Part shown: piece after piece, positions 3,281 through 28,160 of the stretch
Layout: every line of letters starts with the position of its first letter
Numbering within the stretch: position 1 is the first letter of the stretch
Source of the DNA: Patescibacteria group bacterium
Lineage (GTDB): Bacteria; Patescibacteriota; Patescibacteriia; JAHIZJ01
DNA: 37,930 nt
Assembly (NCBI GenBank): GCA_041661625.1
Contig: JBAZUB010000004.1
Span: 1-37,930 of the forward strand
Direction: 5' to 3'
Translations under genes and position numbers: made by a program
The notes under the pieces: generated by a model
The model's database searches: none
What the model was told of the DNA's origin: nothing
Seen by the model: only the letters and a program-made list of their open reading frames with translations

Positions 3281-3597
3281 AACCTTATCCCAATTATAAG
3301 GGCAATAACTTAACGGACATAGTGCCGCGAAAGATTGCGCTTGTGACAGAGGGAGCTAATAAAAAGAAGTTCTGTTTGTTTAAACTCAAAGAAAAAGGAA
3401 ATCCCACAATGGAAAAGACCGAACTGGATACCATCGTATCCGAAGTGGTCAAGGCCATTCAGCCCATGCTGACCGACCTTACCGCAAAGACCGACGCCAT
3501 CGCTAAGATGGTCAAACCCGAAGACAAAGACCCCGAACTCACCGATGAGCAGGTTAAGGCACAGGTTGCCGCCGCTCTTGCCAAGGAAGGAAACTAA
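3277..3597 (+). CDS. Scaffolding-like protein
   Basis: 106 aa, charged and helical (..ELDTIVSEVVKAIQPMLTDLTAKTDAIAKMVKPEDKDPELTDEQVKAQVAAALAKEGN). It lies immediately upstream of the capsid gene and has an ATGA overlap with the protease gene. Confidence 0.5.
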   Translation: MKPYPNYKGNNLTDIVPRKIALVTEGANKKKFCLFKLKEKGNPTMEKTELDTIVSEVVKAIQPMLTDLTAKTDAIAKMVKPEDKDPELTDEQVKAQVAAALAKEGN

Positions 3598-3598
3598 C

Positions 3599-4822
3599 AT
3601 GAAACAGTCCGAACTCAACAAAATGCTTGAGGGTATCTCTACCCGTAAGGCTCGCTTTTCAGTGGGCGAAAATCGCGGTCCTGAGACCATGACCGAACTG
3701 CATAAGGGCAGCGTCACGGGTGAAGACCGCTATGCTCGCGCCATCAAAAAAATTCAGGTTGACAGCGATAAGCTGCTCCTGACTTCCAAGTCTACCGGCA
3801 TCCCGGTTGAGAAGCTGAACGCGTATGCAGGTTTCAAGCGCTTCATCGAGGATGATAGTGAACTTAAGAAGGTCATGACTGACACCACCCAGTCCAACTG
3901 GATTCCCTCCAATTTCAGCGCGGATTTCGTTGATGCTGTCGGCCTTGAACTCAAGGTAGCGGCCCTGTTCCCTGAGGTTCAAATGACCTCTCCGACTCAG
4001 TACTTCAGCATCAAGACTGATTTCAGCACGGCCTATACCAAGACTGAAGGTTCTGACGCGACTGCTTCACCGAACATTACGGACCAGAAAGGCACCCTCA
4101 CGGCTAAGGTTATCGCGGTCTATCAGACCATCAGCGATGAGCTTGACCAGGACGCGGCCTTTGCTCAGGCTCCCATGCTGCGCAATGACTGCATCACGGC
4201 CATCGGGCGCGGTATCGAGAACGCCATTATCAACGGTGACTCTTCGACTACCCACCTTGACACGGATGTTACGCTGGCCTACGATGTGCGCCATGCCTGG
4301 CAGGGCTTGCGGCGTTATGCTTACGCTAACTCCCTGACCACCGACCTGTCCACCTTCAACGCTGACACCGTGACAGCCCTCCTGGGCAGCATGGGCGTTT
4401 ATGGCGCGGACCCTTCACAGATTGCCGTTATCGTTGGTACGGGTGGCCGTATCAAGCTGCTGAACCTCAAGGACAACCAGAATAACCGCGTTTACCTTGA
4501 GTACGGTACGCCCGGCGCTATGAATGTGGCAATGGTTCCCGGTGGTGTCGGCAAACTGGCCGGTTGCGATGTGTTGGTTTCCGAGTTCTGCCGCGAGAAC
4601 CTGAACGCGTCAGGCTTCTATGACAGCACCGTGGCTACCAAGAAGTCGCTCCTGTTCGTTCGTAAGGATGGATGGGTTCGTGGCATGAGCCGGAACATGA
4701 CGGTTGAAACCGACCGTGATATCGTTGCGCAGTATACCAAGCTGGTGGTTTCCACCCGCATGGCTTTCGCGCCCCGTTATTACACCGGCGAAACCACCAC
4801 TTGGCTCGGATACAACATCTAA
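3599..4822 (+). CDS. Major capsid protein (HK97-fold type)
   Basis: 407 aa from ATG 3599, which follows AAGGAAGG one nucleotide after the scaffold stop. The track start at 3545 overlaps the scaffold gene. The call rests on capsid-like length, position and the C-terminal pattern GGVGKLAGCDVLVSEF. Confidence 0.8.
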   Translation: MKQSELNKMLEGISTRKARFSVGENRGPETMTELHKGSVTGEDRYARAIKKIQVDSDKLLLTSKSTGIPVEKLNAYAGFKRFIEDDSELKKVMTDTTQSNWIPSNFSADFVDAVGLELKVAALFPEVQMTSPTQYFSIKTDFSTAYTKTEGSDATASPNITDQKGTLTAKVIAVYQTISDELDQDAAFAQAPMLRNDCITAIGRGIENAIINGDSSTTHLDTDVTLAYDVRHAWQGLRRYAYANSLTTDLSTFNADTVTALLGSMGVYGADPSQIAVIVGTGGRIKLLNLKDNQNNRVYLEYGTPGAMNVAMVPGGVGKLAGCDVLVSEFCRENLNASGFYDSTVATKKSLLFVRKDGWVRGMSRNMTVETDRDIVAQYTKLVVSTRMAFAPRYYTGETTTWLGYNI

Positions 4823-4878: not shown

Positions 4879-5700
4879 ATGATACAAGGCGTGATGATAT
4901 TCTACGATGACGGCCCGGAACTCTTAGAGAGGGCGCTTACCTCTTTAAAGAAGGTGACTGACCGGGTGTTAGCCGTGGACGGGGCATATAGGGAATTTCC
5001 GCATAAGGATTTTCTTAGCAAGAAAGAGAACCGCAAGATAGCCAAGGCGCTTGCCGATGAAGTTATCACACCTGATAAGGAGTGGTATGATGAGCCGACA
5101 AAAAGAAACGCATACCTCACGCTCAAAAGCGAAAAAGACTACTACCTCATGCTCGACGCGGATGAAGAAATTATTGGGCGAAAGCCTGAACGATGCGTGC
5201 ATCCGTGCTACAGGGTTTCGCTATCTACATTCCGTAGCGAACAATGGCTACCCGCTTACTACAACCGGCTCTTCAGGCATCACGAAGGGATGCGTTACCA
5301 CCTCACCCATAACAACCTCGTCACGCCCGCAGGCATAGCGCTTGCCCTGCCGGATAGCCATATCCCTATCTGTGAGGATGTGACTATTAAGCATTACCCC
5401 GGCGAAAGGTCAAATGAGCGGCAGGCGGAAGACGCGGTATTTGAGGGGCGCAAAGAAGAGCGCCTGATAGTCCTGCCGGTCATGCAGGCAACGCCTGACA
5501 GCACAGTCAAGGGTACGCCCATGCAGGTTAGATACATAGCCGCTGCGCCCTATCGCGGATTTGATGACGTTAACGGGCAGTCGGTTAACCTGAACTGCCG
5601 ACAGGGTGACTTAGTTTATATCAGCCGCGAGAAGTGGGCGCAATTACAGGCAGATTTCAAGGGGTCATGGGTGCTTATCAAGGAGATAGACAATGGCTGA
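4879..5700 (+). CDS. GT-A/GT2-like glycosyltransferase with a ~55-aa C-terminal domain shared with the 18090..19670 protein
   Basis: The N-terminus VMIFYDDGPELLERALTSLKKVTDRVLAVDG and the DxD-type motif YYLMLDADEEIIG support the GT call. The C-terminal VRYIAAAPYRGFDDVNG..ISREKWAQLQAD aligns with LRYIGEKVYRGFDDNG..VTREKARQLLQD. An alternative start is ATG 4894. Confidence 0.65.
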   Translation: MIQGVMIFYDDGPELLERALTSLKKVTDRVLAVDGAYREFPHKDFLSKKENRKIAKALADEVITPDKEWYDEPTKRNAYLTLKSEKDYYLMLDADEEIIGRKPERCVHPCYRVSLSTFRSEQWLPAYYNRLFRHHEGMRYHLTHNNLVTPAGIALALPDSHIPICEDVTIKHYPGERSNERQAEDAVFEGRKEERLIVLPVMQATPDSTVKGTPMQVRYIAAAPYRGFDDVNGQSVNLNCRQGDLVYISREKWAQLQADFKGSWVLIKEIDNG

Positions 5701-9038: not shown

Positions 9039-9061
9039 TAACCTATTAAAAGGAGTTTCAG

Positions 9062-17681: not shown

Positions 17682-18093
17682 TGAAAGGTGACCATATCGC
17701 GTATAAGTCGGGCTATAAGTATCAATTGGTAGAGGATTACACCCTTAAGACTAGCATTATTGGGCTTGCCGTTGTTACCCAATTCATAAACCTGACCACG
17801 GACGGGCTGTTGACTATCTTTAAGGGCTACTGTTATGATGGCGCGTCTGGACCCACTGTCGATACAAAGACCTCTATGCGCGGGCATTGGTCCACGATTG
17901 CCTATACCAATTGATGCGGATAGGGTTACTGCCAAGACTTCACAGGGAATACTCCGACAAGCTATTCCGAGAAATCTGTATAGAAGATGGCATGTGGCCT
18001 GCCAGGGCTATGATTTGGGAGCGGGCTGTCAGGTGGTTTGCCGCTGATGCTAGCAAGCCAAGCGGTGAGCCGAAGGTGCAAACGGCCCCTTAA
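17678..18093 (+). pseudogene. DUF1353-like gene interrupted by a 1-nt frame shift near 17882-17886
   Basis: ORF 17678..17914 ends ..GYCYDGASGPTVDTKTSMRG and ORF 17887..18093 begins (L)VHDCLYQLM... Together they reproduce the DGaSiP...HDxlY pattern of DUF1353. One extra G in the GGG run at 17882-84 would join them. Confidence 0.6.
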
Positions 18094-19670
18094 TAGAGGC
18101 TATCTTCGGTCAGGCATCCTAACAACATCCATCTAGCCGGGCCGTCCTGCAGGAGCTGCCTGGCCTTCTCGCGGGTAACCTGAACGGTATCCATGAAGTT
18201 TGCCTCGAACTCATAAGATCCGTTATCATCAAAGCCACGGTAAACCTTTTCCCCTATATACCGCAACTTGAACGGGTGCGATAGTTCAAAGGCTGTGAAG
18301 CTAACCTCACCCTGGAAGTCAGCGGCTACTATGGCCGGGTTAGGGTGTTCCCCTTCACATGCCCCGGTATGCTCAAGCATTGACGGGGAACAGGCGTAAA
18401 CCCTGCCGCCGTCCTTGCGTACTAAGGCACATAAAGCCCCGTCCCAATTTGTTCTTTCATCTTCGGCTATGGTCATTTCGGCTAGGTACTTCTCAAAGAT
18501 AGGCCGGGTAATGATTAGGCCAAGCCCGCCAATGTCAACCTTTTCAACTAGCCCGCCTTCTGATGCGGCTAATGGGGCGTGTATCTTGGCGTTGAACAGG
18601 CAATGAAGCGCACCCTCACGCGGGCGGGCGCGTATGATTTCAAGGGCCATCTTATACCAATCCATTGAGAATACACAATCGCTATCTAAAACAAGGAGGT
18701 TATCAGCCCCGGCCTCAAACATTGCCTTGATACTGGCAAGGTTCTTTCTAACGCATCCAAGGCGCGCCTCTGATTGAACCAGGACAACCTCGGGAATACG
18801 GAGGGTTAGCGCTTTAATCTTCGGCAAGTCATTGGAGCAATCATCGAATACATACAGCCTGCGCGGGCGCGGCTCTGTCTTTAGGTAGCTTCTTACTGTG
18901 CGCTCAAGCAAATCGTACCGGTTGTATGTGGTCATCATCACAGATAGTTCTTCATTATAGATATTCGGAACCTTCTTAGCGGCTACCACCCGCATCCGGT
19001 CTATCAGGTCACCTATCATTTTAACATCTGCAGCGCACTGGCTGTTATACCACTTTGTGAAAATAAGCTCACCCTTTTTGTAATCCTCTTCAACGGCGCG
19101 GTAGGTATCATCCTTGACCGCCTTACCGAAAGCCGGGTGCATATGTTCAATGTTTACCTCGGGCAGATGTGTCATTATGTTGGTCTTAAACCCGATTGAT
19201 GTCAGCCAGCAATCAACCCATGAGTGCTTATAATCTGGCGGGAAGAAATAGCCAAGGGCGTGGACAAGGATGGCCCCGTGCATGGTAGAGGTAGGCATGT
19301 TTTGAGTATTGCCATAACACACGGCAACGCCCATATTCTTGCGGTCTATCGCTTCCATCATCTTAATGTCCCATCCCTCGGTCCTGCAAACATGGTCATC
19401 GTTAATCTCATGGTAATATTCAAAGTCCCGGTACTTTTCGCAGGAGAAATAGTTGACCACCTGAACCATAGTTTTATATGGGCCGAACTCAATAGAGGCA
19501 CCCTTAGGTGGGATGATAGCCTTGTATTGTGCAATCATCGGGTTAGCTTCATCTACATAGGCCACTAGCCTGGAAGCCGGGCCGCGCTTGGTTTCACGCC
19601 ATGACTTCATCATACGCTCAAGCATATCGGGGCGGCGGTGCGAGGAACACATGGTAAGTAGTTTATACAT
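18090..19670 (-). CDS. Double glycosyltransferase (two GT-A-like modules) plus the shared C-terminal domain
   Basis: 526 aa from ATG 19670 (RBS AGAGG, 8-nt overlap with the upstream stop). Module 1 (LLTMCSSHRRPDMLERMM..EINDDHV) is a paralogue of the 25467..26216 protein. Module 2 is GT2-like (LSVMMTTYNRYDLLERTVRSYL..LYVFDDCSND..LVLDSDCVF). The C-terminus carries LRYIGEKVYRGFDDNG..TREKARQLLQD. Confidence 0.7.
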   Translation of the reverse strand: MYKLLTMCSSHRRPDMLERMMKSWRETKRGPASRLVAYVDEANPMIAQYKAIIPPKGASIEFGPYKTMVQVVNYFSCEKYRDFEYYHEINDDHVCRTEGWDIKMMEAIDRKNMGVAVCYGNTQNMPTSTMHGAILVHALGYFFPPDYKHSWVDCWLTSIGFKTNIMTHLPEVNIEHMHPAFGKAVKDDTYRAVEEDYKKGELIFTKWYNSQCAADVKMIGDLIDRMRVVAAKKVPNIYNEELSVMMTTYNRYDLLERTVRSYLKTEPRPRRLYVFDDCSNDLPKIKALTLRIPEVVLVQSEARLGCVRKNLASIKAMFEAGADNLLVLDSDCVFSMDWYKMALEIIRARPREGALHCLFNAKIHAPLAASEGGLVEKVDIGGLGLIITRPIFEKYLAEMTIAEDERTNWDGALCALVRKDGGRVYACSPSMLEHTGACEGEHPNPAIVAADFQGEVSFTAFELSHPFKLRYIGEKVYRGFDDNGSYEFEANFMDTVQVTREKARQLLQDGPARWMLLGCLTEDSLY

Positions 19671-20523
19671 TGGCAACCTCTTTAATTTCAACGGCGCACT
19701 TTGTTGTAACTAAGTCCGGCTTTGCCTTGCACTTGACATCGCAGGGATTACAAAGCCCGTAATTATCGCACTGGCTAAAATCATCCTTATGCTCATAGGC
19801 TATGTTGAGAATGTTACCAACCTCGCTTTCCGCCCCATACAAGTCACGGTGACAGCGGTATATGTTGCCCTCTGGCCCTATTAGGAAATCTTCGGGACGG
19901 CATAAACAGGACTTCCGGTTACCATTCAGGGCCGCATAATATTTGTAATGGCCGAACAGCCTATCGTCATGGAAGCCTAAGAAGTCCCTGATAAAGAAGT
20001 ATACCCCCGCATCGGCGCAGCGCTGTGTCATTTCCGTATTATGGAAAAGGTTATTCGGATGATTGATACCAAATATTCCAACATTATACCCTTCATCCTG
20101 AAGTGTCTTGGCGGTGTTGATTGTATCGTCTTTCTTCATTGAATGAACATGGTAGCTTATGCGGATGGCCTTGTAATAGAAAGCCTCTCTAGCCCCCCTA
20201 TAAAGCCTGTCCGGTGGTATGTTATCCATGAACTCGTCAATATCAAACTGACCATTGGTTAGCAGGTCAATCTTAATATCATCCCTTAGCTGGCTAACGA
20301 TATTATAAAAGCCCGAATGAATAGTAGGCTCACCGCCACCTAGCGTGATAGGCTTACCGCCCGTGTCTATATTGTTCAATCCTAATACCCATTCACGGTC
20401 GGTTAGTTCCTGTCGCTTGCGCTTGCACCCGGTGAATGAATTGATACAATAGGGACAGGCTAGATTACAGCGGAGGGTTAGATAAGCCTCAATGTAGGAA
20501 TAGCGGGCCGGTACTTGTATCAT
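19663..20523 (-). CDS. Radical SAM enzyme with a Cys-rich C-terminal (SPASM/twitch-like) region
   Basis: 286 aa. CNLACPYC matches CxxxCxxC, GGGEPTIH is present, and the C-terminal cysteines lie in CLCRP..RCHRD..CDNYGLCNPCDVKC. Confidence 0.8.
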   Translation of the reverse strand: MIQVPARYSYIEAYLTLRCNLACPYCINSFTGCKRKRQELTDREWVLGLNNIDTGGKPITLGGGEPTIHSGFYNIVSQLRDDIKIDLLTNGQFDIDEFMDNIPPDRLYRGAREAFYYKAIRISYHVHSMKKDDTINTAKTLQDEGYNVGIFGINHPNNLFHNTEMTQRCADAGVYFFIRDFLGFHDDRLFGHYKYYAALNGNRKSCLCRPEDFLIGPEGNIYRCHRDLYGAESEVGNILNIAYEHKDDFSQCDNYGLCNPCDVKCKAKPDLVTTKCAVEIKEVANV

Positions 20524-20747
20524 AATGCTAGCGGCTCCTTCTTTAAAAACTCTCCGGTTACAACGCTTCTAAGGCGCGGCCCGGTTGTAGCCTTACTAGT
20601 GCTAGACCAACACACCATTTCATATATAAAATACTTCCTATCAATGGCAGACCGCCTATGATATGGCTTACACTCTCCACACTTTCCAGCATGAAAACAG
20701 TTAGCCCTACAGGTTCTACAACATAGTTTAATATTACAACGACTCAC
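20520..20747 (-). CDS. Small Cys-rich protein or peptide (metal-binding partner or radical-SAM substrate candidate)
   Basis: 75 aa, MSRCNIKLCCRTCRANCFHAGKCGECKPY..., with 8 Cys in residues 4-25. The GTG start overlaps the upstream stop (GTGA) and its own stop overlaps the downstream ATG (ATGA). A GAAGGG RBS is present. Confidence 0.55.
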   Translation of the reverse strand: MSRCNIKLCCRTCRANCFHAGKCGECKPYHRRSAIDRKYFIYEMVCWSSTSKATTGPRLRSVVTGEFLKKEPLAL

Positions 20748-21979
20748 ATCACGCCCTTCATTAAATGCTCGGCGTATTCAATAATCATATCCCTGAATTC
20801 CTCACCTCGCGGGTGCGGTATATCATAGTATGGTATGGGGTGCTTGAAGTAGTCGGCCCAGTAATCAGGGTATCCTTCTTTTAAGAGTTCGTAATAATAC
20901 GGGGTATCTGGTTCTGGAAATAAGATATTATAATAGGGTGTTTTAATTCCTAACTCATTAACAAGATAGGCCAAGTCCTTCAGGTATTCCATGTTATCGC
21001 AAGGTGTACCAATAATAAAGTAAGCTAAGATATCAATCCCGGCTTGATAGTAGGCACGGCAGAAATCAAGGATATCATCATGGCGGTGGTTCTTTCGCAT
21101 CCATGAGAGCGTCTTATTATTCAGGCTTTCGATACCAACATGGATACGCTTTAGCCCTGTTGCCTTGAGGCGAGGAACGATAGACAGGTCAGCCTTAACC
21201 TGACCTCTCATGCTCCATTCAGTACGCCAATTATCACGCTCCATAGCGTCTAACACCCCGGCGATATGTTGCCGGTTCACATTAAAGTTATCATCGAAGA
21301 TATGAACGGACCCGGCCCCTAACTGCTTGAGGTACTGCATCTCAACCAGGACGGCGGCGGGCGCTTTGGTCATCACCCGCTTGGTCTGGACTGAACAGAA
21401 CTTGCAGGCATTAGGACAGCCCACAGATGTGAACATGGACATCCGCGTGGCAGACTTAAATAATACCTTACCCTCAAAGATATATGACTTGTAATCAATC
21501 AACTCCCTATCTGGGAACTTGATATTTGAAATGTCCGTCTTGCAATCTATCACCCCGGAACGCGGGCTATCTAGCCATTGCGCAAAGTCCATATCCGCAA
21601 GCTGGCCGCGGAATACCGCATCGGCACCCCATGCTATAACCTCTTCAGCGTGGCAGGTAATATGCGGCCCGCCCACTACAACCCATTGAGCCTCTATCTT
21701 TGGCAGTAACTTGAACAGGGAATAGGACCAACGGGTGGCCGCTGAGAATCCCACCACATCCGCGTTGATGGCGTTAATACGGGCGGCGGTATCTTCAATA
21801 GTCCAGCGCTCCGCGAAAGGGTCTAGGATAGTTACGCTGTGCTTTGGTGCGTCAATATTTGACGCTAAAGAGAGTAGGCCGAGCGGTAGATACTTGACCT
21901 CTTTAGGCTCAATGATAAGAGGCGTAACCCATGACCGATACGCGCCATCACGCGGGAGGGTTGATAGGACTATCTTCAT
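20744..21979 (-). CDS. B12-binding-domain radical SAM enzyme (class B)
   Basis: 411 aa. The N-terminal part looks like a cobalamin-binding domain (VVGFSAATRWSYSLFKLL..VVVGGPHITCH), and CPNACKFC matches CxxxCxxC. Confidence 0.8.
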   Translation of the reverse strand: MKIVLSTLPRDGAYRSWVTPLIIEPKEVKYLPLGLLSLASNIDAPKHSVTILDPFAERWTIEDTAARINAINADVVGFSAATRWSYSLFKLLPKIEAQWVVVGGPHITCHAEEVIAWGADAVFRGQLADMDFAQWLDSPRSGVIDCKTDISNIKFPDRELIDYKSYIFEGKVLFKSATRMSMFTSVGCPNACKFCSVQTKRVMTKAPAAVLVEMQYLKQLGAGSVHIFDDNFNVNRQHIAGVLDAMERDNWRTEWSMRGQVKADLSIVPRLKATGLKRIHVGIESLNNKTLSWMRKNHRHDDILDFCRAYYQAGIDILAYFIIGTPCDNMEYLKDLAYLVNELGIKTPYYNILFPEPDTPYYYELLKEGYPDYWADYFKHPIPYYDIPHPRGEEFRDMIIEYAEHLMKGVM

Positions 21980-22449
21980 TTTGCTTTCTTCAACCCAATA
22001 AGCGCCGGGCCTTCCCTGTCATATTCCTTCAGGACCGCCGCCGTGGTTTCCTCTGCCGTCTTTGGGTAATAGATGGCCGCGTTTGTGAACGGGTTAAACT
22101 TATCAAAGCGCAAGATATCGGCATGACTGACACCCTGTCCTGGATAGTCAGCGTATCCCACAAGTTTAACATTGGCATTGTTAGCGTCAACATCAATCTT
22201 GATTTGCTCAAAGGCGCGTTCAAATAGGAATGGCGTAATGGTAAATACCCACGGCTTAAGCCCCTCAAGGGCCATGCCTGCCGCGATACCTACCATGCTT
22301 TGTTCAATCACGCCAATATTCAAGAACTGCTTTGGCCGTTCCTTGCGGAGGCGGTCGAAAATACCGAAGCCAATGTCCCCGACTAAGAGTATAACCTTAT
22401 CGTCTTTAATGGCAAGGTCGGCCAAGGCGTTTCCAAAGGCGGTTCTCAT
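21976..22449 (-). CDS. Transketolase-family ThDP enzyme, pyrimidine-binding (C-terminal-section) subunit, truncated
   Basis: 157 aa. MRTAFGNALADLAIKDDKVILLVGDIG..FLNIGVIEQSMVGIAAGMALEG matches the TK Pyr domain. There are ATGA overlaps on both sides. Confidence 0.75.
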   Translation of the reverse strand: MRTAFGNALADLAIKDDKVILLVGDIGFGIFDRLRKERPKQFLNIGVIEQSMVGIAAGMALEGLKPWVFTITPFLFERAFEQIKIDVDANNANVKLVGYADYPGQGVSHADILRFDKFNPFTNAAIYYPKTAEETTAAVLKEYDREGPALIGLKKAK

Positions 22450-23066
22450 TTCAATTCCTCCATAGCCTGATTATATTCCTCTTCCTTGATAGGCTTAACA
22501 TGGACATCGGGCCTGTCCTTAAACAGCCCTATCCCGTCACCCTTCACGCCGTGATGAATGATAACCCTAACGCCTGAATAAGACAGCATCTTCTTGACGC
22601 TGTAAATGGTCTTGCTTATCGCCTGATATTGGTTTGCGTCAATGTGAACCGTGAGCCGCCATTGCTGAAGGAACCGGCCCGCGAAAAGGATTGACTCCCA
22701 TGTTGTCCCCTCCGCACACTCCCCGTCACCTAACAGGACATGAACCTTGCCGGGATTGCCGGTTATCTGTTTGGCAAAGGCTATGCCGCAAGCTATCGGT
22801 AGGCCGTGACCTAGGCTTCCACCGGTGGTGACAACCCCATTCTTAGCGTCCCGGCTAGGCTCATGGTGCTGCCAATTAGGGGCCAGCCCGTAATCCTCAA
22901 GGACCGCATACAGGCCGTAAGCCCCGTGACCCTTGGACAGGATAAAGACATCATGGGCGCGGTTCATGATGGCGTAAATCTCGCGGATGATAGGCAGCGC
23001 GGAAAGCGCCGATGGCATGTGTGAATAGCCTATCTTGTAGGCTTGAGACAGCATCCGGCGCTTCAT
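22446..23066 (-). CDS. Transketolase-family ThDP enzyme, diphosphate-binding (N-terminal-section) subunit
   Basis: The motifs GHGAYGLYAVLEDYGL, GSLGHGLPIACGIA and LLGDGECAEGTTWES are present. The start is uncertain: ATG 23066 is given here, but TTG 23083 (just after GAGGGAGGG, overlapping the upstream stop) is also possible. Confidence 0.75.
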   Translation of the reverse strand: MKRRMLSQAYKIGYSHMPSALSALPIIREIYAIMNRAHDVFILSKGHGAYGLYAVLEDYGLAPNWQHHEPSRDAKNGVVTTGGSLGHGLPIACGIAFAKQITGNPGKVHVLLGDGECAEGTTWESILFAGRFLQQWRLTVHIDANQYQAISKTIYSVKKMLSYSGVRVIIHHGVKGDGIGLFKDRPDVHVKPIKEEEYNQAMEELK

Positions 23067-23080
23067 GTCCTTGAGTGATT

Positions 23081-23587
23081 TCAATTTCCCTCCCTCTTTG
23101 CAAATAGTTCTTTGAAATACCAATGGTCTTTGAATAAGTGCATCCTACCCTTAACCACATTATCGGGCCAATCCCACCACTTAATACCTAGCATCATTTC
23201 CCGTGTCTCTTTATTAAAGCGATAGCCCTGAATGGTGTTTCCATCCATGACCGCATAGGGCGGAACATCAACCGATACCCGTGAACCGGCCTTGATAATA
23301 GCGCCATCCCCTATGGTTATCCCTGCCGTAAGGATGCAATACGCCCCTATTAAAACATCATTCCCTATGGTAATCTTTCCAAGGGCTTTATTATTTGGGT
23401 AATCGGGACAGCCTAAATCTTCATTGAAAGCATAGTTTGAAACTAGTTTTCTATCCGATAATGACGGGTGGGCCACATCAACTATCCGCAACCATGCCGC
23501 AATAGATGTATATTTACCGACCACTACCTCGACCTTGTAAGGGTCTTTGAACGGCCTGCGGATAAATGAGTGAGCGCCAATGGTCAT
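23081..23587 (-). CDS. Hexapeptide-repeat acetyltransferase of the Vat/CatB (XAT) type
   Basis: 168 aa. ITIGNDVLIGAYCILTAGITIGDGAIIKAGSRVSVDVPPYAV..GYRFNKETREMMLGIKWWDWP closely follows the Vat(D)/CatB pattern recalled from memory. Confidence 0.75.
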   Translation of the reverse strand: MTIGAHSFIRRPFKDPYKVEVVVGKYTSIAAWLRIVDVAHPSLSDRKLVSNYAFNEDLGCPDYPNNKALGKITIGNDVLIGAYCILTAGITIGDGAIIKAGSRVSVDVPPYAVMDGNTIQGYRFNKETREMMLGIKWWDWPDNVVKGRMHLFKDHWYFKELFAKREGN

Positions 23588-24720
23588 ATAAAATTCACGC
23601 CCTTCAAGTCGCTAGGCACAGAGTCCGGCCAGTTGTATTTATGCCCCGCCTGCAAATAGTCATAACAAAACTTATTAGCCGCATCCTGCCTACACGCGCC
23701 CTTGCATTGGGTATGACTATCGAAATCTTCCCGCATGGCCTTGAGGATGTCCCAATAGCGGCGGCTTTCAAACATATCCTTAAGCCGCGCTTCGTGGACA
23801 TTACCGAACTTGTATTGCGCAAACCGTTTTTTATTACCGAAAAAATGCCCGCAAGGGAACCAATCCCCGTTGCCTGAAATCTCACTGATAAACGGGATGG
23901 ATGGACAGCCCTTATATGGCCGCTGCCCTTTCTGTTTAATCGTGTTCCACTTAACGATAATTTTAGTTGCCCGCGTTGACATGGCCTCGCATTGCTTGAG
24001 GCAGTCAATAGTTGATGGCGCGTCATAGGCGTTGACATCGAAATACTCCATGCCGCTTTCACCCTTATCCGGCAAGCTGCATTGTTTGATGACAAAGTAA
24101 TTCACGCCAAGGTCAACGGCTAGTTTAGCTTCGGCTATCATGTCCGCGTCCATCGTGCCGGGGATATAAACCGACTGCATACCTACATCGCAGGACAGGC
24201 CGTAATAGGCTTTGACATCTACAAGCTGCCTGATATTGGCTACAACCCTATCGAAGAAATCGCGGCCATGTATCTTCTGATAGCCTTCCCGTGTCCCGGC
24301 GCTAATGCAAAACCGCATCCAGGTACACGCCGAAAGAATAGCCTCCGCCTTATCGCGGGTATTTACCATAAGGCCGTTGGTAGATATGGCAAGGTCAAGG
24401 TGCGTCTTTTCGCGGGCGATTGCCAAGGCTTCCCACAGGTGCGGGTTGCATGTAGGCTCTCCATCCCCGATAAAGGCGATGGACTTCACACCTATCTCGT
24501 TGGCATCAAGGATGGTTTGTATCAACGGCTCACGCTTGATATATACAGGGGCTAACTCCTGATATTTACCATAGCAAAACACACACGCGATATTACAAAA
24601 CTTTGCTATACCCATGTCAATATGGATTGGCGGGACATGAAGGTTATGGTCAAAGTATGACTCAAGCCATCCCCGGTGATACATCAATTTTGTGCTGTCA
24701 CTCATGCGAGGGTCATCCAT
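23584..24720 (-). CDS. Radical SAM enzyme with a C-terminal auxiliary Cys region (SPASM/twitch-like)
   Basis: 378 aa from ATG 24720, with GGAGG 7 nt upstream. CNIACVFC matches CxxxCxxC, FIGDGEPT is present, and the C-terminus carries CPSIPF..PCGHFF..CKGACRQD. Confidence 0.8.
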   Translation of the reverse strand: MDDPRMSDSTKLMYHRGWLESYFDHNLHVPPIHIDMGIAKFCNIACVFCYGKYQELAPVYIKREPLIQTILDANEIGVKSIAFIGDGEPTCNPHLWEALAIAREKTHLDLAISTNGLMVNTRDKAEAILSACTWMRFCISAGTREGYQKIHGRDFFDRVVANIRQLVDVKAYYGLSCDVGMQSVYIPGTMDADMIAEAKLAVDLGVNYFVIKQCSLPDKGESGMEYFDVNAYDAPSTIDCLKQCEAMSTRATKIIVKWNTIKQKGQRPYKGCPSIPFISEISGNGDWFPCGHFFGNKKRFAQYKFGNVHEARLKDMFESRRYWDILKAMREDFDSHTQCKGACRQDAANKFCYDYLQAGHKYNWPDSVPSDLKGVNFI

Positions 24721-25489
24721 TGGCGGGCCTCCAATTGCGGACTGAATAGGGTAGTAAATCGCGGTCAACCTCTATTGTCTTCTGCCACACCCCGGCGCAG
24801 CCCACATAGTAATGATAAGCCGGGCCGGGTATCTTATCCCATACCTCTGCCTGCCATGTCTCAAGGTGAACCAGGGGCGGGGCGTATCTATCGCCCACCC
24901 GTGAGGTAGTCATCTTGCGGAATACTTCATCTATATCATCACGGACTAGCGCGAAGTGGTGGACTGTCACCCCGGCCATAAAGCGGCGCGGGTCGGCCCC
25001 GTTGCCGCGTATGCCCTGACAGATACACATGGGCCGGGTGAATATCGTAGGCTTAACCTGCGTTCCATAGGTATCATCCACCATGTAAAGCACATCTTTT
25101 ATATATGTGTGCATGTTACAGGTAAAGGCTTGAACATCTGCGGGCGCGTTAAACAGGTATTCCATTGCCCGTTCCCACGCCATTTCAGTCCATACCTCAT
25201 CACTATCAATCAGGAGTACCCAATCGGGTTTATAATGGGCCATGACAAACTGCTGGCCTATTCTATACTGTGCCTCTTGGTCCGTGGTGTCATGCTTAAG
25301 GACTACAATCTTTTTCAGCGGGTCAGGATAGGCGCGGGCCACGGCCTCTGTATTGTTGCCGTCCTTGCCGTCCCACCCTATATTGGATGAAACGAAAACA
25401 ATCTTATCCACATGATTATAGACGGAGGCTATCGAAGCCTCTAGGAACTCGCGGCCACGGAAAATCTTATAGAGCGCTACTATGTTCAC
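24713..25489 (-). CDS. GT2-like glycosyltransferase
   Basis: 258 aa. The N-terminus is ..FLEASIASVYNHVDKIVFVSS and LLIDSDEVW is a DxD-type motif. The GTG start has an AGGA RBS and overlaps the upstream gene by 23 nt. Confidence 0.6.
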   Translation of the reverse strand: MNIVALYKIFRGREFLEASIASVYNHVDKIVFVSSNIGWDGKDGNNTEAVARAYPDPLKKIVVLKHDTTDQEAQYRIGQQFVMAHYKPDWVLLIDSDEVWTEMAWERAMEYLFNAPADVQAFTCNMHTYIKDVLYMVDDTYGTQVKPTIFTRPMCICQGIRGNGADPRRFMAGVTVHHFALVRDDIDEVFRKMTTSRVGDRYAPPLVHLETWQAEVWDKIPGPAYHYYVGCAGVWQKTIEVDRDLLPYSVRNWRPANG

Positions 25490-26216
25490 CCTGCAATTCC
25501 TTTTCCCATGCCGTCTTTATCAGCGCAATCTGTCGGGCCTGCTCTTCGTTGCGCCATAAGGTAAGCCCGGCAAGGCTTTCAACCTCTGCCTCGCGGCTAT
25601 TGATAAACGCTAGGTTCTCATCGGGGTTAGCGCAAAGCATCCCTTGAAGGTGCCTGATAATAACCTCTGGCACTAGCGGGCATATTCCTAGGCCGTCACA
25701 AAGTTCCTTAGTATAACTGTCCTGGCCCCTATGCTTAACTGTTCGCGGATACGCAAAGCCTACTAACTGCGCCTGCTTGCGGCTCCATATTTCCATAGAC
25801 GGGTGCCGCCATGCAAACCAGTTATCATTGAGCCTGTCATCGCCACAGATAAAGCCCCATCCGTTTGACCGCTTCTCAAATTCGTTCAGTAATATCAAGT
25901 CCCAATTGGGAGTAATATAGCGAGCGTCATCGGTAATGATTTGGTAATATTCGTAATCGGGATAGCGCTCAAGGCAGGTGTGATTTAAAACTTCTTGCAT
26001 ACACCTATGTTTATCAACCACATAAAGCATGTTGTAGGTTGATGTATAGTGTCCAATCTTAGATAGGTAATCGCCTAGCTTCGGGTCATCGTTATGGAGA
26101 TAAACAAACATATCTCCATCATCGTCTAGGCCACGGGTTGCATAATATGTATCTAGCATTTGCGGTAATTCGTGTGGGCGGCGAAAGGTAGTGCAAATTG
26201 CGAGCAGGCGCTTCAT
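25467..26216 (-). CDS. GT-A-like glycosyltransferase (paralogue of module 1 of the 18090..19670 protein)
   Basis: 249 aa. LLAICTTFRRPHELPQMLDTYY parallels LLTMCSSHRRPDMLERMMKSW, and QIITDDARY parallels EINDDHVCR. This is the first gene of the operon. Confidence 0.55.
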   Translation of the reverse strand: MKRLLAICTTFRRPHELPQMLDTYYATRGLDDDGDMFVYLHNDDPKLGDYLSKIGHYTSTYNMLYVVDKHRCMQEVLNHTCLERYPDYEYYQIITDDARYITPNWDLILLNEFEKRSNGWGFICGDDRLNDNWFAWRHPSMEIWSRKQAQLVGFAYPRTVKHRGQDSYTKELCDGLGICPLVPEVIIRHLQGMLCANPDENLAFINSREAEVESLAGLTLWRNEEQARQIALIKTAWEKELQGEHSSAL

Positions 26217-26235
26217 GTAACCCCCTGTTGTATTT

Positions 26236-26263
26236 AATATAATCTATAATTTATAGATGTAAA
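26236..26263 (-). promoter_or_regulatory. Sigma70-like promoter of the GT/radical-SAM operon
   Basis: On the minus strand: TTTACA (26263-26258), a 16-nt spacer, then TATATT (26241-26236), followed by GGGGG and ATG 26216. Confidence 0.5.
26242..26258. promoter_or_regulatory. Perfect 17-bp palindrome (operator candidate) filling the promoter spacer
   Basis: ATCTATAA-T-TTATAGAT reads as its own reverse complement. Confidence 0.6.
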
Positions 26264-26453: not shown

Positions 26454-26675
26454 TCATGGCCTATTCGCCTTCACACATGCCGCCCGCGTTGCGGCCCTGT
26501 CCCATTCCCGGTCACGCTCGCGCCAGCATCCACGGCAGAAATTATCCAACACCTTCTGCCCCCATTGCTCGCAATACCTGAAATCGGCAGGCTCACCCTT
26601 GAGACTTGGCGCTATGCCATGCCTGACGCTCGATTGCGCCAATGATGCACGCCGCGCTTGAAATGATTTAATCAC
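26454..26675 (-). CDS. Small Cys-containing hypothetical protein
   Basis: 73 aa (..YCEQWGQKVLDNFCRGCW..). The GTG start overlaps the upstream stop (GTGA). Codon usage looks coding. Confidence 0.4.
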   Translation of the reverse strand: MIKSFQARRASLAQSSVRHGIAPSLKGEPADFRYCEQWGQKVLDNFCRGCWRERDREWDRAATRAACVKANRP

Positions 26676-26851
26676 CGCCGCCTCCGTATTGATTTCTTTT
26701 CTGTTTCAACTAGCTCCATTGCAAATGTTTCGCAAGTAGCACAAGGCTCCATCATCCAACACGAGCAAGCCTTTTCATAAGGGCATTGATACAAATTTGG
26801 ATTAATATCATTTTTGATATAATTTAATTTAGGTTTCACCTCCGCCTCCAT
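26672..26851 (-). CDS. Small Cys-rich hypothetical protein
   Basis: 59 aa from the internal ATG 26851: MEAEVKPKLNYIKNDINPNLYQCPYEKACSCWMMEPCATCETF.. Confidence 0.45.
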   Translation of the reverse strand: MEAEVKPKLNYIKNDINPNLYQCPYEKACSCWMMEPCATCETFAMELVETEKKSIRRRR

Positions 26852-27000
26852 GCTACTTGATGTATGAATATCCCGGCCAGTAATATACACATTACCCGCG
26901 CCGTATCGCCCACGCTCCAATAGTCCGCCGCGATGGATATGACGGCGCCCATAAGGGCAAGCTCTAGGGCGGTTACGATGATGCGGATGGCGGTTGTCAT
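26836..27000 (-). CDS. Small hydrophobic (membrane) protein, below the ORF-track size cut-off
   Basis: 54 aa, MTTAIRIIVTALELALMGAVISIAADYWSVGDTARVMCILLAGIFIHQVAWRRR. Its ATG overlaps the upstream stop (ATGA at 26997-27000). Confidence 0.4.
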   Translation of the reverse strand: MTTAIRIIVTALELALMGAVISIAADYWSVGDTARVMCILLAGIFIHQVAWRRR

Positions 27001-27323
27001 GCCCATACCGCCTCCACGCCGCCGCGCCGTGATTGCAGCGGGCTTATTTGATACCCGGACTTTTTAAGCCCTGCGTTTTTCATCGCCACGCCAAACCAGT
27101 TTTTACTTACCGGCGCTCCAACAGCCTTAGCCTCCGCGCTTGACCGCACCGCCGACATTGCTATCGGCCTTGGCAGGGACCGGATAAGGTCAATCATCGC
27201 CGCCATCCAGCGCCCCTTGTAATCCGCGAAACAATCGAGTTGCGCAGGGTCACGGTTAGGCTTGCGGTTACGGGCTATGATAATCTTTCCATCAGGTGGG
27301 ACATGGATGGATAGGGCGGTCAT
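26997..27323 (-). CDS. Hypothetical protein
   Basis: 108 aa from ATG 27323, with GGAGG 5 nt upstream and an ATGA overlap with the upstream stop. Confidence 0.5.
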   Translation of the reverse strand: MTALSIHVPPDGKIIIARNRKPNRDPAQLDCFADYKGRWMAAMIDLIRSLPRPIAMSAVRSSAEAKAVGAPVSKNWFGVAMKNAGLKKSGYQISPLQSRRGGVEAVWA

Positions 27324-27505
27324 TTCACCCTCCATCTCTTCATGTTCTTGTATTTACCAAGCCGATTACAGCATGGACAATTCATGTTTTCATCTAGAGC
27401 GCAAAATGATTTTTCGTCAACCGGCCTAGCTCCGCACTCGGCATTACCTAGACAGCCGCAACTTTCACATGGAGGGTCATCAAGAATGGAGTATTGCGGT
27501 ATCAT
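27320..27505 (-). CDS. Small Cys-rich hypothetical protein
   Basis: 61 aa from ATG 27505 (GGAGG 5 nt upstream, ATGA overlap): ..PPCESCGCLGNAECG..FCALDENMNCPCCN.. Confidence 0.5.
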   Translation of the reverse strand: MIPQYSILDDPPCESCGCLGNAECGARPVDEKSFCALDENMNCPCCNRLGKYKNMKRWRVK

Positions 27506-27795
27506 TTCACCCTCCACGGCCACGCCATCGGGGTCCATAACCCGCAACGAGCAGCCGTATATTGCATGCTACACTCTTTGCCACAGGTAAAGCAGTCCCG
27601 CGACTGAACCCCACCACGCTCCGCAATCAATCGCGCAATGGCAAGGAGTGAGCCATGATGAAACTTTGAATAGGCTGACGGGTTAATCCGTGCCTTGGCC
27701 GGTATCGACTTATAGCCAAACGCCATCACAATCACCGCCTCAATCGGCATGGCGGCGAGGGCTTCGTGGCTGGTCATGGTGCGGGCGTGGTTCAT
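27502..27795 (-). CDS. Hypothetical protein
   Basis: 97 aa from ATG 27795 (AAGGA 5 nt upstream). A C-terminal CFTCGKEC is present. Confidence 0.45.
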   Translation of the reverse strand: MNHARTMTSHEALAAMPIEAVIVMAFGYKSIPAKARINPSAYSKFHHGSLLAIARLIAERGGVQSRDCFTCGKECSMQYTAARCGLWTPMAWPWRVK

Positions 27796-27821
27796 TGGGT
27801 TCCTTTGGTTACAATGGCCCG

Positions 27822-28115: not shown

Positions 28116-28150
28116 TTTAACTCCTTGTCTTTTGTCTTGGGGCAGGCTTG

Positions 28151-28158
28151 CGTACAAC
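28151..28158. repeat. IR1 right arm (pairs with 27970..27977)
   Basis: CGTACAAC lies directly after the stop codon of the 28161..28454 gene. Confidence 0.3.
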
Positions 28159-28160
28159 GG

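Follow-up and report, generated by a model that had tools for sequence, protein, structure and literature searches.

Glycosylation by phage-encoded enzymes has been described for both DNA and virion proteins. Phage GT-A enzymes add hexose, HexNAc or heptose to 5hmC from host sugar donors (10.1101/2023.12.21.572611), and mycobacteriophage capsid and tail-tube C-termini carry glycans (Freeman 2023, as summarised in PMC12619734). For the glycosyltransferase (GT) and radical SAM (rSAM) cassettes of marine myophages, a role at the host surface has been assumed (PMC7029224). The phage genome analysed here devotes more than a fifth of its DNA to eleven sugar-handling genes, which include an uncharacterised enzyme cassette of a kind common in uncultured phages.

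A translationally coupled operon of ten genes

The window, i.e. the whole stretch of 37,930 nucleotides that was analysed, is a contig with a 127-nt terminal repeat and corresponds to a complete, circular phage genome of 37,803 bp. Ten minus-strand, overlap-coupled genes (18090-26216) form an operon occupying 21.5% of the circle, in agreement with the one fifth given in the first-pass annotation. All ten ORFs proposed there were recovered at the same coordinates, and an independent gene caller returned the same genes on a second assembly (249, 258, 378, 168, 212, 157, 411, 75 and 286 aa), in which g10 is cut by the contig end. The second assembly confirms the operon border at 26.3 kb and, together with the circular assembly, excludes chimerism as far as sequence allows. 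The features are as follows.

3545..4822, plus strand: major capsid protein (MCP), HK97-like (phrog_10 at 9e-13)
4879..5700, plus strand: eleventh glycosyltransferase (p273), GmaR/SunS-like GT2 with a C-terminal domain of ~55 aa, 273 aa (profile matches, synteny)
18090..19670, minus strand: g10, double glycosyltransferase, 526 aa (phrog_14945 at 1e-26, PF00535 at 1e-11)
19663..20523, minus strand: g9, compact rSAM enzyme with Cys-rich C-terminal region, 286 aa (PF04055 at 3.9e-12)
20520..20747, minus strand: g8, Cys-rich ORF of uncertain status, 75 aa (independent gene caller)
20744..21979, minus strand: g7, B12-binding rSAM enzyme of class B type, 411 aa (PF02310, PF04055)
21976..22449, minus strand: g6, Pyr-domain subunit of split ThDP enzyme, 157 aa (PF02779 at 3.7e-21)
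22446..23084, minus strand: g5, ThDP-binding PP-domain subunit of minimal split TK/E1/DXS-like enzyme, 212 aa (PF00456, PF13292, PF00676)
23081..23587, minus strand: g4, hexapeptide (left-handed beta-helix) acetyltransferase, Vat/CatB/XAT-like, 168 aa (PF00132 at 2.4e-10)
23584..24720, minus strand: g3, rSAM/SPASM enzyme, 378 aa (PF04055, PF13186)
24713..25489, minus strand: g2, GT2-like glycosyltransferase with GTG start, 258 aa (PF00535)
25467..26216, minus strand: g1, GT-A-fold glycosyltransferase, 249 aa (phrog_14945, AlphaFold fold)
26263-26236, minus strand: candidate promoter/operator TTTACA-16-TATATT (consensus matches only)

The junction overlaps along the operon are 23, 8, 4, 4, 4, 4, 4, 4 and 8 nt; the two 8-nt overlaps and the 23-nt overlap reported earlier were thus reproduced, whereas the 4-nt overlaps number six rather than five. 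A promoter and operator of its own had also been ascribed to the operon. TTTACA-16-TATATT and a perfect palindrome inside its spacer, ATCTATAA-T-TTATAGAT (26242-26258, unique in the genome), are candidates for these, although promoter-like matches are not enriched over shuffled sequences. The operon lies outside the structural module, after the replication genes, and points in the same direction as the early and replication genes.

The operon combines five GT domains with three rSAM enzymes (one B12-binding), the hexapeptide acetyltransferase, a split ThDP enzyme of minimal form and a Cys-rich orphan ORF of 75 aa, and these domain assignments held in profile searches, AlphaFold/Foldseek analysis (g1) and PDB matches (g5 and g6). 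g1 has no Pfam match and was assigned by phrog_14945 (9e-16) and by its AlphaFold model (pLDDT 91, GT-A fold), for which Foldseek gave PcManGT, WrtF and TarP (~1e-8) and viral GTs at TM ~0.8; its closest structural relatives include giant-virus and actinophage GTs, and its fold matches the wall-polymer GTs TarP, RmlT and TarS about as well as any other. It belongs to an SxxRP...DD...H...D family, in which the DD, H and D columns are invariant, and is a paralogue of the N-domain of g10. The start of g2 overlaps g1 by 23 nt; its PF00535 match is marginal (4.8e-5, 23.8 bits with the cut-off at 23.3), and counterparts at 39-43% are found in the related loci L003, L004 and L082. In g10, a g1-like GT-A domain, which in part matches a PHROG with a DNA methyltransferase annotation, is followed by a GT2 domain, whose PDB matches are to ppGalNAc-T2 alone and weak (0.002), and by a C-terminal domain of ~55 aa.

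The rSAM motifs are CNIACVFC in g3, CPNACKFC in g7 and CNLACPYC in g9. The family profile of g3, whose alignment of 23 sequences has a mean column identity of 66%, is nearest to anSME 4k36 (3.9e-7) and CteB, and g9 matches SkfB and PqqE in the PDB. g7 has homologues at 52% identity in L004 and L082 and no specific NCBIfam equivalog. The NCBIfam matches of g4 (Vat, CatB, TIGR03308) are partial and all under their cut-offs. g5, which has a TTG start with a strong SD and a GDG...DAN motif, is best matched by the split transketolase N-chain 6yak (1e-16), and g6, with the catalytic Glu motif GVIEQ, by the C-chain 6yaj (8.6e-16) in the Pyr part only, as it consists of the Pyr domain without the TK C-terminal domain. 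g8 contains two CxxC knuckles, overlaps its neighbours by 4 nt at each end and gave no family match in Pfam, PHROG or NCBIfam searches.

No 19-aa window of transmembrane-like hydrophobicity was found, consistent with the earlier statement that membrane-spanning segments are missing. Family and profile searches of the window gave no Wzx/Wzy, nucleotidyltransferase, dehydratase, ThyA homologue or polymerase, and the phage genome has no detected integrase, lysogeny module, flippase, TET, GtrA/B or ligase. Because export and sugar-activation genes are missing in the window, host-made precursors would be needed. The only methyltransferase in the window is of the N6/N4 type.

A glycosyltransferase gene beside the capsid gene

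In the first-pass annotation p273, encoded directly 3' of the major capsid protein gene, was overlooked. The profile of its family (366 representatives) matches GmaR (5e-15), 7msk (1e-7) and SunS (3e-6), and PF00535 is matched in 25 of 60 members; its nearest solved relatives are thus protein and peptide GTs, GmaR being a flagellin GT and SunS a peptide GT. The MCP-then-GT order is repeated in at least six other phages (L085, L086, L088, L089, L095 and L103), and the MCP of the window is homologous to those preceding p273-type GTs elsewhere, including one with a PF05065 match in L086.

The C-terminal domain of ~55 aa is common to the p273 family and the g10-type double GTs. Residues 473-524 of g10 and 214-267 of p273 share 43% identity over 54 aa (5e-8), a relation also found by HMM, and the domain recurs on other contigs, in P0132 and P0141. 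In addition, two further loci of the module (L035 and L010) contain p273-like GT domains. A low-sensitivity pattern search (+/-10 kb) of 25 IMG/VR contigs with g3 found no capsid-adjacent GT, and the link of p273 to the module therefore rests on the window genome and the shared domain.

A module family in phages and bacteria

The module family has g3 as its signature gene. More than 450 metagenomic homologues of g3 were found, most on phage-sized contigs. Within the phage clade of g3, identities are 50-71%, compared to 33-42% with bacterial homologues, and the operon has therefore not been copied verbatim from a bacterial locus. In 22 of 26 viral loci g3 lies together with a ThDP enzyme and a g9-like rSAM enzyme; the ThDP enzyme is either split E1/TK-like or ALS-like and is swapped non-orthologously from locus to locus. 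This co-occurrence with swapping argues for a single chemical role of the ThDP step. In L082, g3 is accompanied by neither a ThDP enzyme nor g9, and the cassette is therefore not obligatory; in this phage the operon closes the early gene block. L082 also has a ParB_N gene, and a MazZ-like gene lies nearby in L003.

Sugar-nucleotide genes missing from the window (RmlB/C/D-like, Glf, 2-epimerase, cytidylyltransferase) are frequent in relatives, so that the reported lack of export and sugar-activation genes, true for this genome, does not extend to the sugar-activation genes of its relatives. The window operon is a pared-down version of a module that forms a large, unnamed family among metagenomic phages. 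In bacteria, homologues of the cassette sit in surface-glycan (LPS-type) loci, with a GT9 heptosyltransferase and GT2s nearby in Geobacter OR-1 and GmhA/HldE-like genes in Methylobacter. The gene combination, for which no described phage system had been known to the first-pass annotation, is thus no one-off. In Streptomyces BE-cluster phages, g1-like GTs are found among replication genes, adjoining a heptose-adenylyltransferase-like gene.

Candidate acceptors of the proposed glycan

We give an even chance to the reading that the operon and p273 form a system glycosylating virion proteins with a radical/ThDP-tailored glycan, an oligosaccharide that would contain an unusual sugar, most likely on the major capsid protein. 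Virion proteins had been ranked first among the acceptors in the first-pass annotation, and the MCP-then-GT order, the GmaR/SunS kinship of p273 and the domain it shares with g10 favour this choice. The weak ppGalNAc-T2 match of g10, the giant-virus and actinophage relatives of g1, the p273-like domains in L035 and L010 and the sugar-nucleotide genes around the cassettes of relatives and bacterial counterparts point the same way, as do the joint occurrence of g3, a ThDP enzyme and g9 in most viral loci and the lack of an integrase, flippase, polymerase, ThyA homologue or TET. The mycobacteriophage glycans on capsid and tail-tube C-termini provide a precedent. Against it stand the position of the operon outside the structural module among co-directional early and replication genes, the g1-like GTs among the replication genes of Streptomyces phages, a cassette that is not obligatory and the g3-bearing IMG/VR contigs on which no capsid-adjacent GT was found.

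We infer the following scheme, including its acceptor, the sequence of its steps and each conversion. p273 would place the first sugar, from a host-made nucleotide sugar, on a capsid side chain, and g1, g2 and g10, with five GT domains between them, would extend the glycan, the common C-terminal domain bringing g10 and p273 to one acceptor. g3, as an anSME/BtrN-type enzyme, may then oxidise a sugar hydroxyl to a carbonyl, standing in for the NDP-sugar dehydratase missing from the window; this dehydrogenase role is suggested by remote similarity only (E ~4e-7). The split enzyme g5/g6 could add a C2 unit to the carbonyl to give a branched or chain-extended sugar, which may be further modified by g9 and g7, the latter probably a C-methylase, and acetylated by g4.

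Modification of a host surface glycan linked to a lipid or polymer (LPS core, O-antigen, capsule or teichoic-acid-like polymer) by the same soluble enzymes on the cytoplasmic side, using host export machinery, is unlikely in our view. It would serve to block superinfection or to keep progeny from adsorbing to debris, the kind of role assumed for the marine myophage cassettes. Since the bacterial homologues sit in LPS-type loci, a lipid-linked acceptor is conceivable, and the fold of g1 suits wall-polymer GTs; as TarP, RmlT and TarS-type GTs are themselves soluble, the missing transmembrane segments, from which a cytoplasmic acceptor had been suggested, do not prove a cytoplasmic, non-lipid one. 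However, a phage lacking an integrase and a lysogeny module would leave seroconversion little time to act, GtrA/B, Wzx, Wzy and ligase are missing from the window, and p273 and its shared domain would be left unexplained. Moreover, g3 of the phage clade shows strong conservation among unrelated phages, whose hosts should differ in surface glycans. We regard glycosylation of a modified DNA base of the phage by the GTs, with the rSAM, ThDP and acetyltransferase enzymes building or tailoring an appended group against restriction, as quite improbable. Known phage GT-A enzymes do act on 5hmC, and TarP is the best PDB match for those enzymes too; the Streptomyces phage GTs, the methyltransferase-annotated PHROG, the place of the operon after the replication genes and the MazZ-like and ParB_N genes would also fit. 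Yet the described routes all depend on a hydroxylated base that is supplied either by a ThyA homologue or by 5mYOX/TET with a C5-methyltransferase, and the window has none of these enzymes, its one methyltransferase being of another type. A ThyA-like ORF was found in none of the 109 loci examined, neither TET nor ThyA occurs in the Pfam-annotated flanks of L009, L010, L012 and L082, and the motif set of DNA GT-A enzymes, R...DDD...EDY/F, differs from that of g1.

A glycocin-like product, in which g8 or another small acceptor would be modified by the rSAM enzymes and S-/O-glycosylated by SunS-like GTs, yielding a toxin or a signal, is highly improbable. In its favour, peptide maturation is the typical task of SPASM rSAM enzymes, SunS, a peptide S-glycosyltransferase, is matched by the p273 family together with the related entry 7msk, and the Cys-rich g8 is translationally coupled to an rSAM gene on either side. 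However, no homologue of g8 was found in any relative's locus examined, and in L004 it is missing between the B12-rSAM gene and g9, which are kept; the co-encoded peptide, one of the acceptors proposed earlier, is a weak candidate for this reason. Its Cys-richness is not peculiar, being shared by several other small early ORFs of the phage, and no leader-peptidase/ABC exporter or thiol-disulfide enzyme was found. It is the capsid gene, not g8, with which the SunS-like GT is associated, and the cassettes of relatives and bacterial counterparts are embedded in sugar-nucleotide pathways.

A ten-gene operon in a complete phage genome

The window is the genome of a tailed phage, with annotated genes for portal, protease, HK97-type capsid, tape measure, SSB, HNH, N6/N4 DNA methyltransferase, replication initiator and TerS. 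An exact 127-nt terminal direct repeat (1-127 and 37804-37930), together with a large terminase (TerL) ORF that leaves the 3' end and resumes at the 5' end, shows that the assembly is circular and the genome complete at 37,803 bp. Searches of this genome for an integrase, a repressor (lysogeny) module, a DNA polymerase, tRNAs and Rfam elements came back empty, and the phage is apparently non-temperate. The ORF listing gave ten minus-strand ORFs between 18090 and 26216 (g1 to g10, numbered from the 26216 end), which make up 21.5% of the genome, in agreement with the first-pass estimate of roughly a fifth. Chimerism, a concern raised beforehand, is unlikely, because the genome is circular with TerL across its ends, an independent Logan assembly (SRR18595301) carries the same genes across the 26.3-kb border, and GC content displays no step at either operon border.

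The operon adjoins the lysis end of the late genes on the opposite strand. The stop codons of g10 and of the final ORF on the plus strand (17887-18093, 68 aa) share 4 nt (18090-18093), so that the late and glycan transcription units converge without an intergenic spacer; only a weak hairpin (18004-17988) was observed at this point. Profile searches with Pfam, PHROGs and NCBIfam upheld the domain set proposed in the first-pass annotation:

23584-24720, minus strand: g3, Radical_SAM (PF04055) plus SPASM (PF13186), CX3CX2C core
g4: hexapeptide acetyltransferase, partial Vat/CatB-type matches
g5: PP half of a transketolase/E1/DXS-type ThDP enzyme (PF00456/PF00676), GDG...DAN motif
g6: Pyr half of the ThDP enzyme (PF02779), GVIEQ with the catalytic Glu
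g7: B12-binding plus Radical_SAM
g9: Radical_SAM
g10: phrog_14945 glycosyltransferase (GT) domain plus PF00535 GT2 domain

The Cys columns are invariant in the alignment of the g3 family. Among solved structures in the PDB, g5 and g6 are closest to the two subunits of the split transketolase from Carboxydothermus (1e-16 and 9e-16), and the cofactor-binding motif of g5 and the catalytic Glu of g6 are both intact in sequence. The earlier designation as a split transketolase was borne out for the PP and Pyr halves but not for the enzyme as a whole. g6 stops after the Pyr domain (157 aa) with no PF02780 C-terminal domain, suggesting a minimal heterodimer of 212 + 157 aa instead of a true transketolase; all NCBIfam scores of g5 and g6 fall far under the equivalog cut-offs, and the pair does not qualify as transketolase proper.

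GT domains are present in g1, g2, g10 (two) and p273, a 273-aa protein encoded outside the operon. The match of g2 is barely above the PF00535 cut-off. g1 has no Pfam match and has a PHROG in common with the N-terminal domain of g10; its AlphaFold model, built from 24 homologues (pLDDT 91), has a clear GT-A fold with TarP among the best structural matches, and among its nearest structural relatives in BFVD are a chlorovirus protein and a GT2 of the Mimivirus lineage (TM ~0.8).

The genes are tightly coupled, as previously noted, with junction overlaps of 23, 8, 4, 4, 4, 4, 4, 4 and 8 nt, giving six and not five overlaps of 4 nt. No transmembrane-like stretch occurs in any of the ten operon proteins, again as described before. 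As for the proposed dedicated promoter and operator, a promoter-like TTTACA-16-TATATT (26263-26236) was seen, whose spacer holds a perfect 8+1+8 palindrome that is single-copy in the genome, but consensus promoter matches in the window are no commoner than in shuffles, and both are best taken as candidate elements. A riboswitch in the 237-nt leader was considered and rejected, as Rfam at gathering thresholds returned nothing anywhere in the window.

The suggestion that g8 is a co-encoded peptide acceptor is weak in the light of the relatives: this Cys-rich ORF has no homologue anywhere among the mapped loci and is missing where its neighbours are kept. Its Cys-richness is not special in this genome, since several other small early ORFs within 26672-28454 are unusually Cys-rich, with CxxC-type knuckles, for example:

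26672-26920, minus strand: Cys-rich early ORF
27320-27547, minus strand: Cys-rich early ORF
27822-28157, minus strand: Cys-rich early ORF
28161-28454, minus strand: Cys-rich early ORF

The cassette in other phages and in bacteria

Megablast against 50,697 GenBank phages gave no DNA-level match to the operon or to the structural half. Sequence matches in GenBank phages were limited to the g1-type domain in actinophages; for the B12-dependent radical SAM (rSAM) enzyme only a 24% partial match, in an unrelated context of Streptomyces phage SF3, was obtained. The g3 family comprises 456 protein-cluster homologues below 1e-10, with more than 120 at 50-71% identity, nearly all metagenomic, and an alignment of 23 sequences has a mean column identity of 66%. 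The contigs of the listed g3 matches range from ~1 kb upward, the longer ones being mostly 36-55 kb and one a T4-like contig of 328 kb.

The operon proteins were mapped onto 25 IMG/VR loci and several Logan, JGI and ENA contigs, with +/-10 kb around each. In 22 of the 26 viral loci, genes for a g9-like rSAM and a ThDP enzyme are found no more than a few kb from g3, and in the remaining four the contig end cuts the locus or there is no detectable ThDP enzyme. Two forms of the ThDP component occur: some loci have a split E1/TK-like pair resembling that of the window, others a three-domain ALS/YerE-like protein that is often accompanied by a class I/II aminotransferase. Genes for g1-type GT-A and GT2 enzymes usually adjoin this cassette, and in many relatives there are also RmlB/C/D-like enzymes, UDP-GlcNAc 2-epimerase, UDP-galactopyranose mutase, cytidylyltransferase, SAM methyltransferases, B12-rSAMs or MptE-like domains. 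The absence of export and sugar-activation genes claimed earlier holds for the window, but the lack of sugar-nucleotide genes does not extend to the module family, so that the window represents a stripped-down state. The flanks of the relative loci share almost nothing with the window, indicating that the module moves between unrelated phages. One locus (L082) belongs to a distant relative of the window phage, with portal and TerS ~32% identical, and carries a reduced set of B12-rSAM, g2, two g1-type GTs and g3, without ThDP enzyme or g9.

Several features of individual loci were also observed. In L003, a MazZ-type dATP/dGTP diphosphohydrolase (7712-8239; PF18909, 3e-33), a family associated with 2-aminoadenine (Z) genomes, lies 2 kb upstream of the g3 homologue. 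In L012, a 689-aa rSAM gene beside the g3 homologue (7914-9983) is disrupted by an intein that carries a LAGLIDADG homing endonuclease (PF14890, PF14528), and an intein domain is also present in P0146, a match to the g1 family.

A scan of species-representative genomes recovered bacterial g3 homologues, among others in Methylobacter tundripaludum SV96, Geobacter sp. OR-1, Polaromonas, Nitrospira, Magnetococcales and Pelagibacteraceae SAGs. In nearly every case a split E1/TK pair and SDR genes are found 1-2.5 kb away; additional rSAM/SPASM paralogues and B12-rSAMs are frequent neighbours, and g9 is an occasional one. The Methylobacter locus (L046) encodes a GmhA-like SIS protein, an HldE-like kinase/nucleotidyltransferase and several Glyco_trans_1_2 proteins, pointing to a heptose-nucleotide pathway, and the Geobacter locus (L064) contains a GT9 heptosyltransferase, GT2s and a methyltransferase. 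These neighbourhoods suggest that the cassette is a sugar-tailoring unit of cell-surface (LPS-type) glycan loci. A verbatim copy of a bacterial locus, which the first-pass annotation had named as fatal to its proposal, was not seen, the bacterial g3 proteins being just 33-42% identical; on sequence grounds, the phage g3 clade is a distinct and far more conserved branch, not a recent verbatim capture. Links between the cytidylyltransferase-like genes of the phages and the bacterial HldE-like gene are weak or absent.

A glycosyltransferase gene beside the capsid gene

An eleventh glycan gene, p273, is located in the head module:

3545-4822, plus strand: major capsid protein (MCP) gene
4879-5700, plus strand: p273, GT of 273 aa with a DAD motif, 57 nt downstream of the MCP gene

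Pfam detected nothing on p273 alone, even at E = 10. An exhaustive HMMER search collected 366 representatives of its family; a PF00535 match was present in 25 of 60 members, and a profile of these 60 matched GmaR (5e-15), the Listeria flagellin O-GlcNAc transferase, and SunS, the glycocin S-glycosyltransferase, with the related 7msk (1e-7 to 3e-6), whereas the wall-teichoic-acid GT TarS scored only 0.007. By these matches, the closest solved relatives of p273 are GTs whose direct substrates are proteins or peptides. The assignment is drawn from sequence profiles, since the AlphaFold model made from the p273 sequence alone could not be used (pLDDT 31). hhalign detected no relation between p273 and the g1 family, and tblastn of p273 against the 50,697 GenBank phages gave nothing.

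A p273 homologue directly follows the capsid gene in six further loci (L085, L086, L088, L089, L095 and L103), and another ENA contig has the same gene order downstream of its homologue, the upstream gene being cut by the contig end. Residues 214-267 of p273 are 43% identical to the C-terminal residues 473-524 of g10 (E 5e-8). This ~55-aa C-terminal domain, which an HMM recovers from over 30 proteins of the capsid-adjacent GT family, also ends P0132 and P0141, g10-type double GTs from unrelated contigs; its profile has no significant PDB match. For the middle domain of g10, the PDB gave matches to polypeptide GalNAc-transferases alone (E 0.002), and p273-like GT domains occur inside the module at L035 and L010. 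The lists of IMG/VR contigs with p273-type genes and with the module (22 and 25), taken from an insensitive pattern-based scan, do not overlap, and the putative link between p273 and the operon comes from one genome and the shared ~55-aa domain.

The MCPs that precede p273-type GTs (window 4770-4822; L085, L086, L088, L089 and L095) have a conserved ...GYN C-terminus, just before which lies a short variable patch containing Ser/Thr (YTGETTTW, VSSNKCV, ISTQRIV, ATTQPFV) that could be a glycosylation site. A 640-aa protein of the structural region without a family match (7116-9038, plus strand) has, by eye and without domain-search support, a fibronectin-III-like stretch at about residues 430-500; a surface-exposed tail or decoration protein is a possible identity, which would make it another potential glycan acceptor.

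Proposed acceptor, chemistry and alternatives

Synteny with the capsid gene, the affinity of p273 to protein GTs and the C-terminal domain that p273 shares with g10 together make virion proteins, above all the capsid, the favoured acceptor. Soluble phage GTs occur here without export or flippase genes, and one of them is linked to structural genes in the window and in six loci. The ~55-aa segment may be a docking-type domain on p273 and g10; extending the glycan and tailoring its sugars would be the task of the ten-gene operon. Over nearly its full length, the profile of the g3 family aligns with the rSAM enzyme anSME (anaerobic sulfatase-maturating enzyme; residues 41-342, 32.8 bits), a remote likeness in which CteB scores equally, and its CX3CX2C core and SPASM auxiliary-cluster region agree with an anSME/BtrN-like enzyme. 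g3 may thus act as an rSAM dehydrogenase that makes a carbonyl, either on a common sugar of the host or on a glycan already in place, to which the minimal ThDP carboligase (g5/g6) would transfer a C2 unit with formation of a C-C bond; additional modification of the sugar would fall to g9, the B12-rSAM and the acetyltransferase. That two unrelated ThDP scaffolds replace each other in an otherwise conserved cassette fits one shared role in carboligation or decarboxylation. No 4,6-dehydratase, the source of NDP-4-keto sugars, is present in the window; a keto-acceptor would then have to come from g3 or the host, and a carbonyl made by g3 would explain this absence. Both reactions and acceptor are what we infer from family membership and gene neighbourhood. 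That an undescribed rSAM/SPASM-ThDP-rSAM route to branched or chain-extended ('higher-carbon') sugars, independent of a 4,6-dehydratase, coats the capsids of hundreds of uncultured phages is a tentative proposal, to which we attach limited confidence; such phages would range from 38-kb siphoviruses to 328-kb T4-like jumbo phages, with a non-host glycan as the coat. A phosphonate pathway, considered in view of the ThDP enzyme, the B12-rSAM and 'phn' hexapeptide transferase matches, was rejected, as there is no PEP mutase, the ThDP enzyme is of TK/E1 and not Ppd type, and the scores are far under the cut-offs.

Modification of the host envelope would accord with the bacterial contexts of the cassette and the TarP-like fold of g1, yet it does not suit an apparently non-temperate phage and leaves the capsid-adjacent GT unexplained. 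The parts expected for seroconversion (flippase, polymerase, GtrA/B, lysogeny module) were not found and no operon protein is transmembrane. Overall, we consider envelope modification rather unlikely. A glycocin-like RiPP would make use of the SunS-like family to which p273 belongs, but is unlikely because g8 is an orphan and the window has no peptidase-ABC exporter, thiol-disulfide oxidoreductase or maturation genes.

Glycosylation of phage DNA is the best-documented use of phage GT clusters, and the operon is co-directional with the replication genes; Streptomyces phages carry g1-like GTs in the replication module beside a nucleotidyltransferase. Like the window, the known clusters (T4 alpha/beta-GT; Pyle 2023; arabinosyl-5hoC, Lee 2026) are multi-GT, draw on host donors and have GT-A folds with TarP-like matches, as g1 does. 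The invariant motifs of g1 differ from the R...DDD...EDY/F set of DNA GT-A enzymes. The described routes all need a ThyA-type hydroxylase/hydroxymethylase, or a 5mYOX/TET-type dioxygenase with a C5-methyltransferase, and no enzyme for hydroxylated pyrimidines was found among the window ORFs (Pfam, PHROGs) or the annotated flanks of relatives. The same searches agreed with the earlier statement that the window has neither a dNMP hydroxymethylase nor a DNA polymerase, its sole methyltransferase is of N6/N4 type, and a search with a ThyA query sequence found no similar ORF in the window or 109 loci. DNA as the acceptor is therefore quite improbable.

Virion-protein glycosylation, the favoured reading, has partial precedents. 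The GT2 enzymes GmaR and SunS/ThuS attach sugars directly to side chains of proteins or peptides; p273 differs in having neither the anti-repressor part of GmaR nor the TPR region with which SunS binds its peptide, and in its novel ~55-aa C-terminal domain. Giant viruses make virus-encoded, host-independent virion glycans with rare sugars (chlorovirus MCP glycans, Mimivirus fibril glycans), but these are eukaryotic viruses with complete nucleotide-sugar pathways of their own, and we know of no rSAM/ThDP cassette in them. Transfer of a C2 unit to a keto-sugar by an ALS-like or split E1-like ThDP enzyme is known for YerE (yersiniose) and the E1-like pair AviB1/AviB2 (avilamycin), the latter accompanied by the rSAM epimerase AviX12; in orthosomycin clusters the ThDP enzyme occurs together with GTs, an rSAM that tailors sugars, and methyl or acyl transferases. 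There, 4,6-dehydratases provide the NDP-4-keto sugars with which the pathway begins, whereas the window has no dehydratase and its ThDP enzyme is minimal, without the TK C-domain; the likeness is one of enzyme type. Among rSAM enzymes, dehydrogenases of anSME/BtrN type resemble g3 remotely through anSME, and CteB is a thioether-forming enzyme.

To our knowledge, virion glycosylation has been experimentally established in only a few phages, in which it affects antibody recognition. Mycobacteriophages of the Che8/Corndog/Myrna type, reported by Freeman et al. 2023 as summarised in PMC12619734, resemble the window in using soluble phage GTs and host nucleotide sugars without export genes; several GTs act with tailoring enzymes on capsid and tail-tube subunits. 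Their systems are described as GTs, sometimes with methyltransferases, and none is described with rSAM, B12-rSAM or ThDP enzymes; the window differs also in having one GT embedded in the head module. Full-text searches of the accessible literature found no description of, or function assigned to, the rSAM/SPASM-ThDP-rSAM cassette, in keeping with the first-pass remark that no described phage system with this combination was known to its author; marine myophage papers touch on rSAM and GT cassettes only in passing (PMC7029224). In none of the closest systems are phage GTs accompanied by both a ThDP enzyme and three rSAM enzymes.

Virus-encoded virion glycosylation is already known, and it is the tailoring cassette that appears to be new; its exact chemistry may be new as well. 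Three rSAM enzymes, one of them B12-dependent, with a ThDP carboligase represent chemistry otherwise seen in antibiotic sugar tailoring. If the favoured reading is correct, virion glycosylation extends to a large and diverse set of environmental phages, and small phages spend up to a quarter of their genome on it. p273 and its putative docking-type domain would provide a direct testable handle, with one enzyme and one substrate protein. As the cassette is shared with LPS-type loci of bacteria such as Geobacter, Methylobacter, Polaromonas and Pelagibacteraceae, solving the compact phage operon would annotate a widespread bacterial surface-glycan pathway. The Methylobacter and Geobacter loci belong to cultured, tractable bacteria that carry the cassette and are suited to work on its chemistry.
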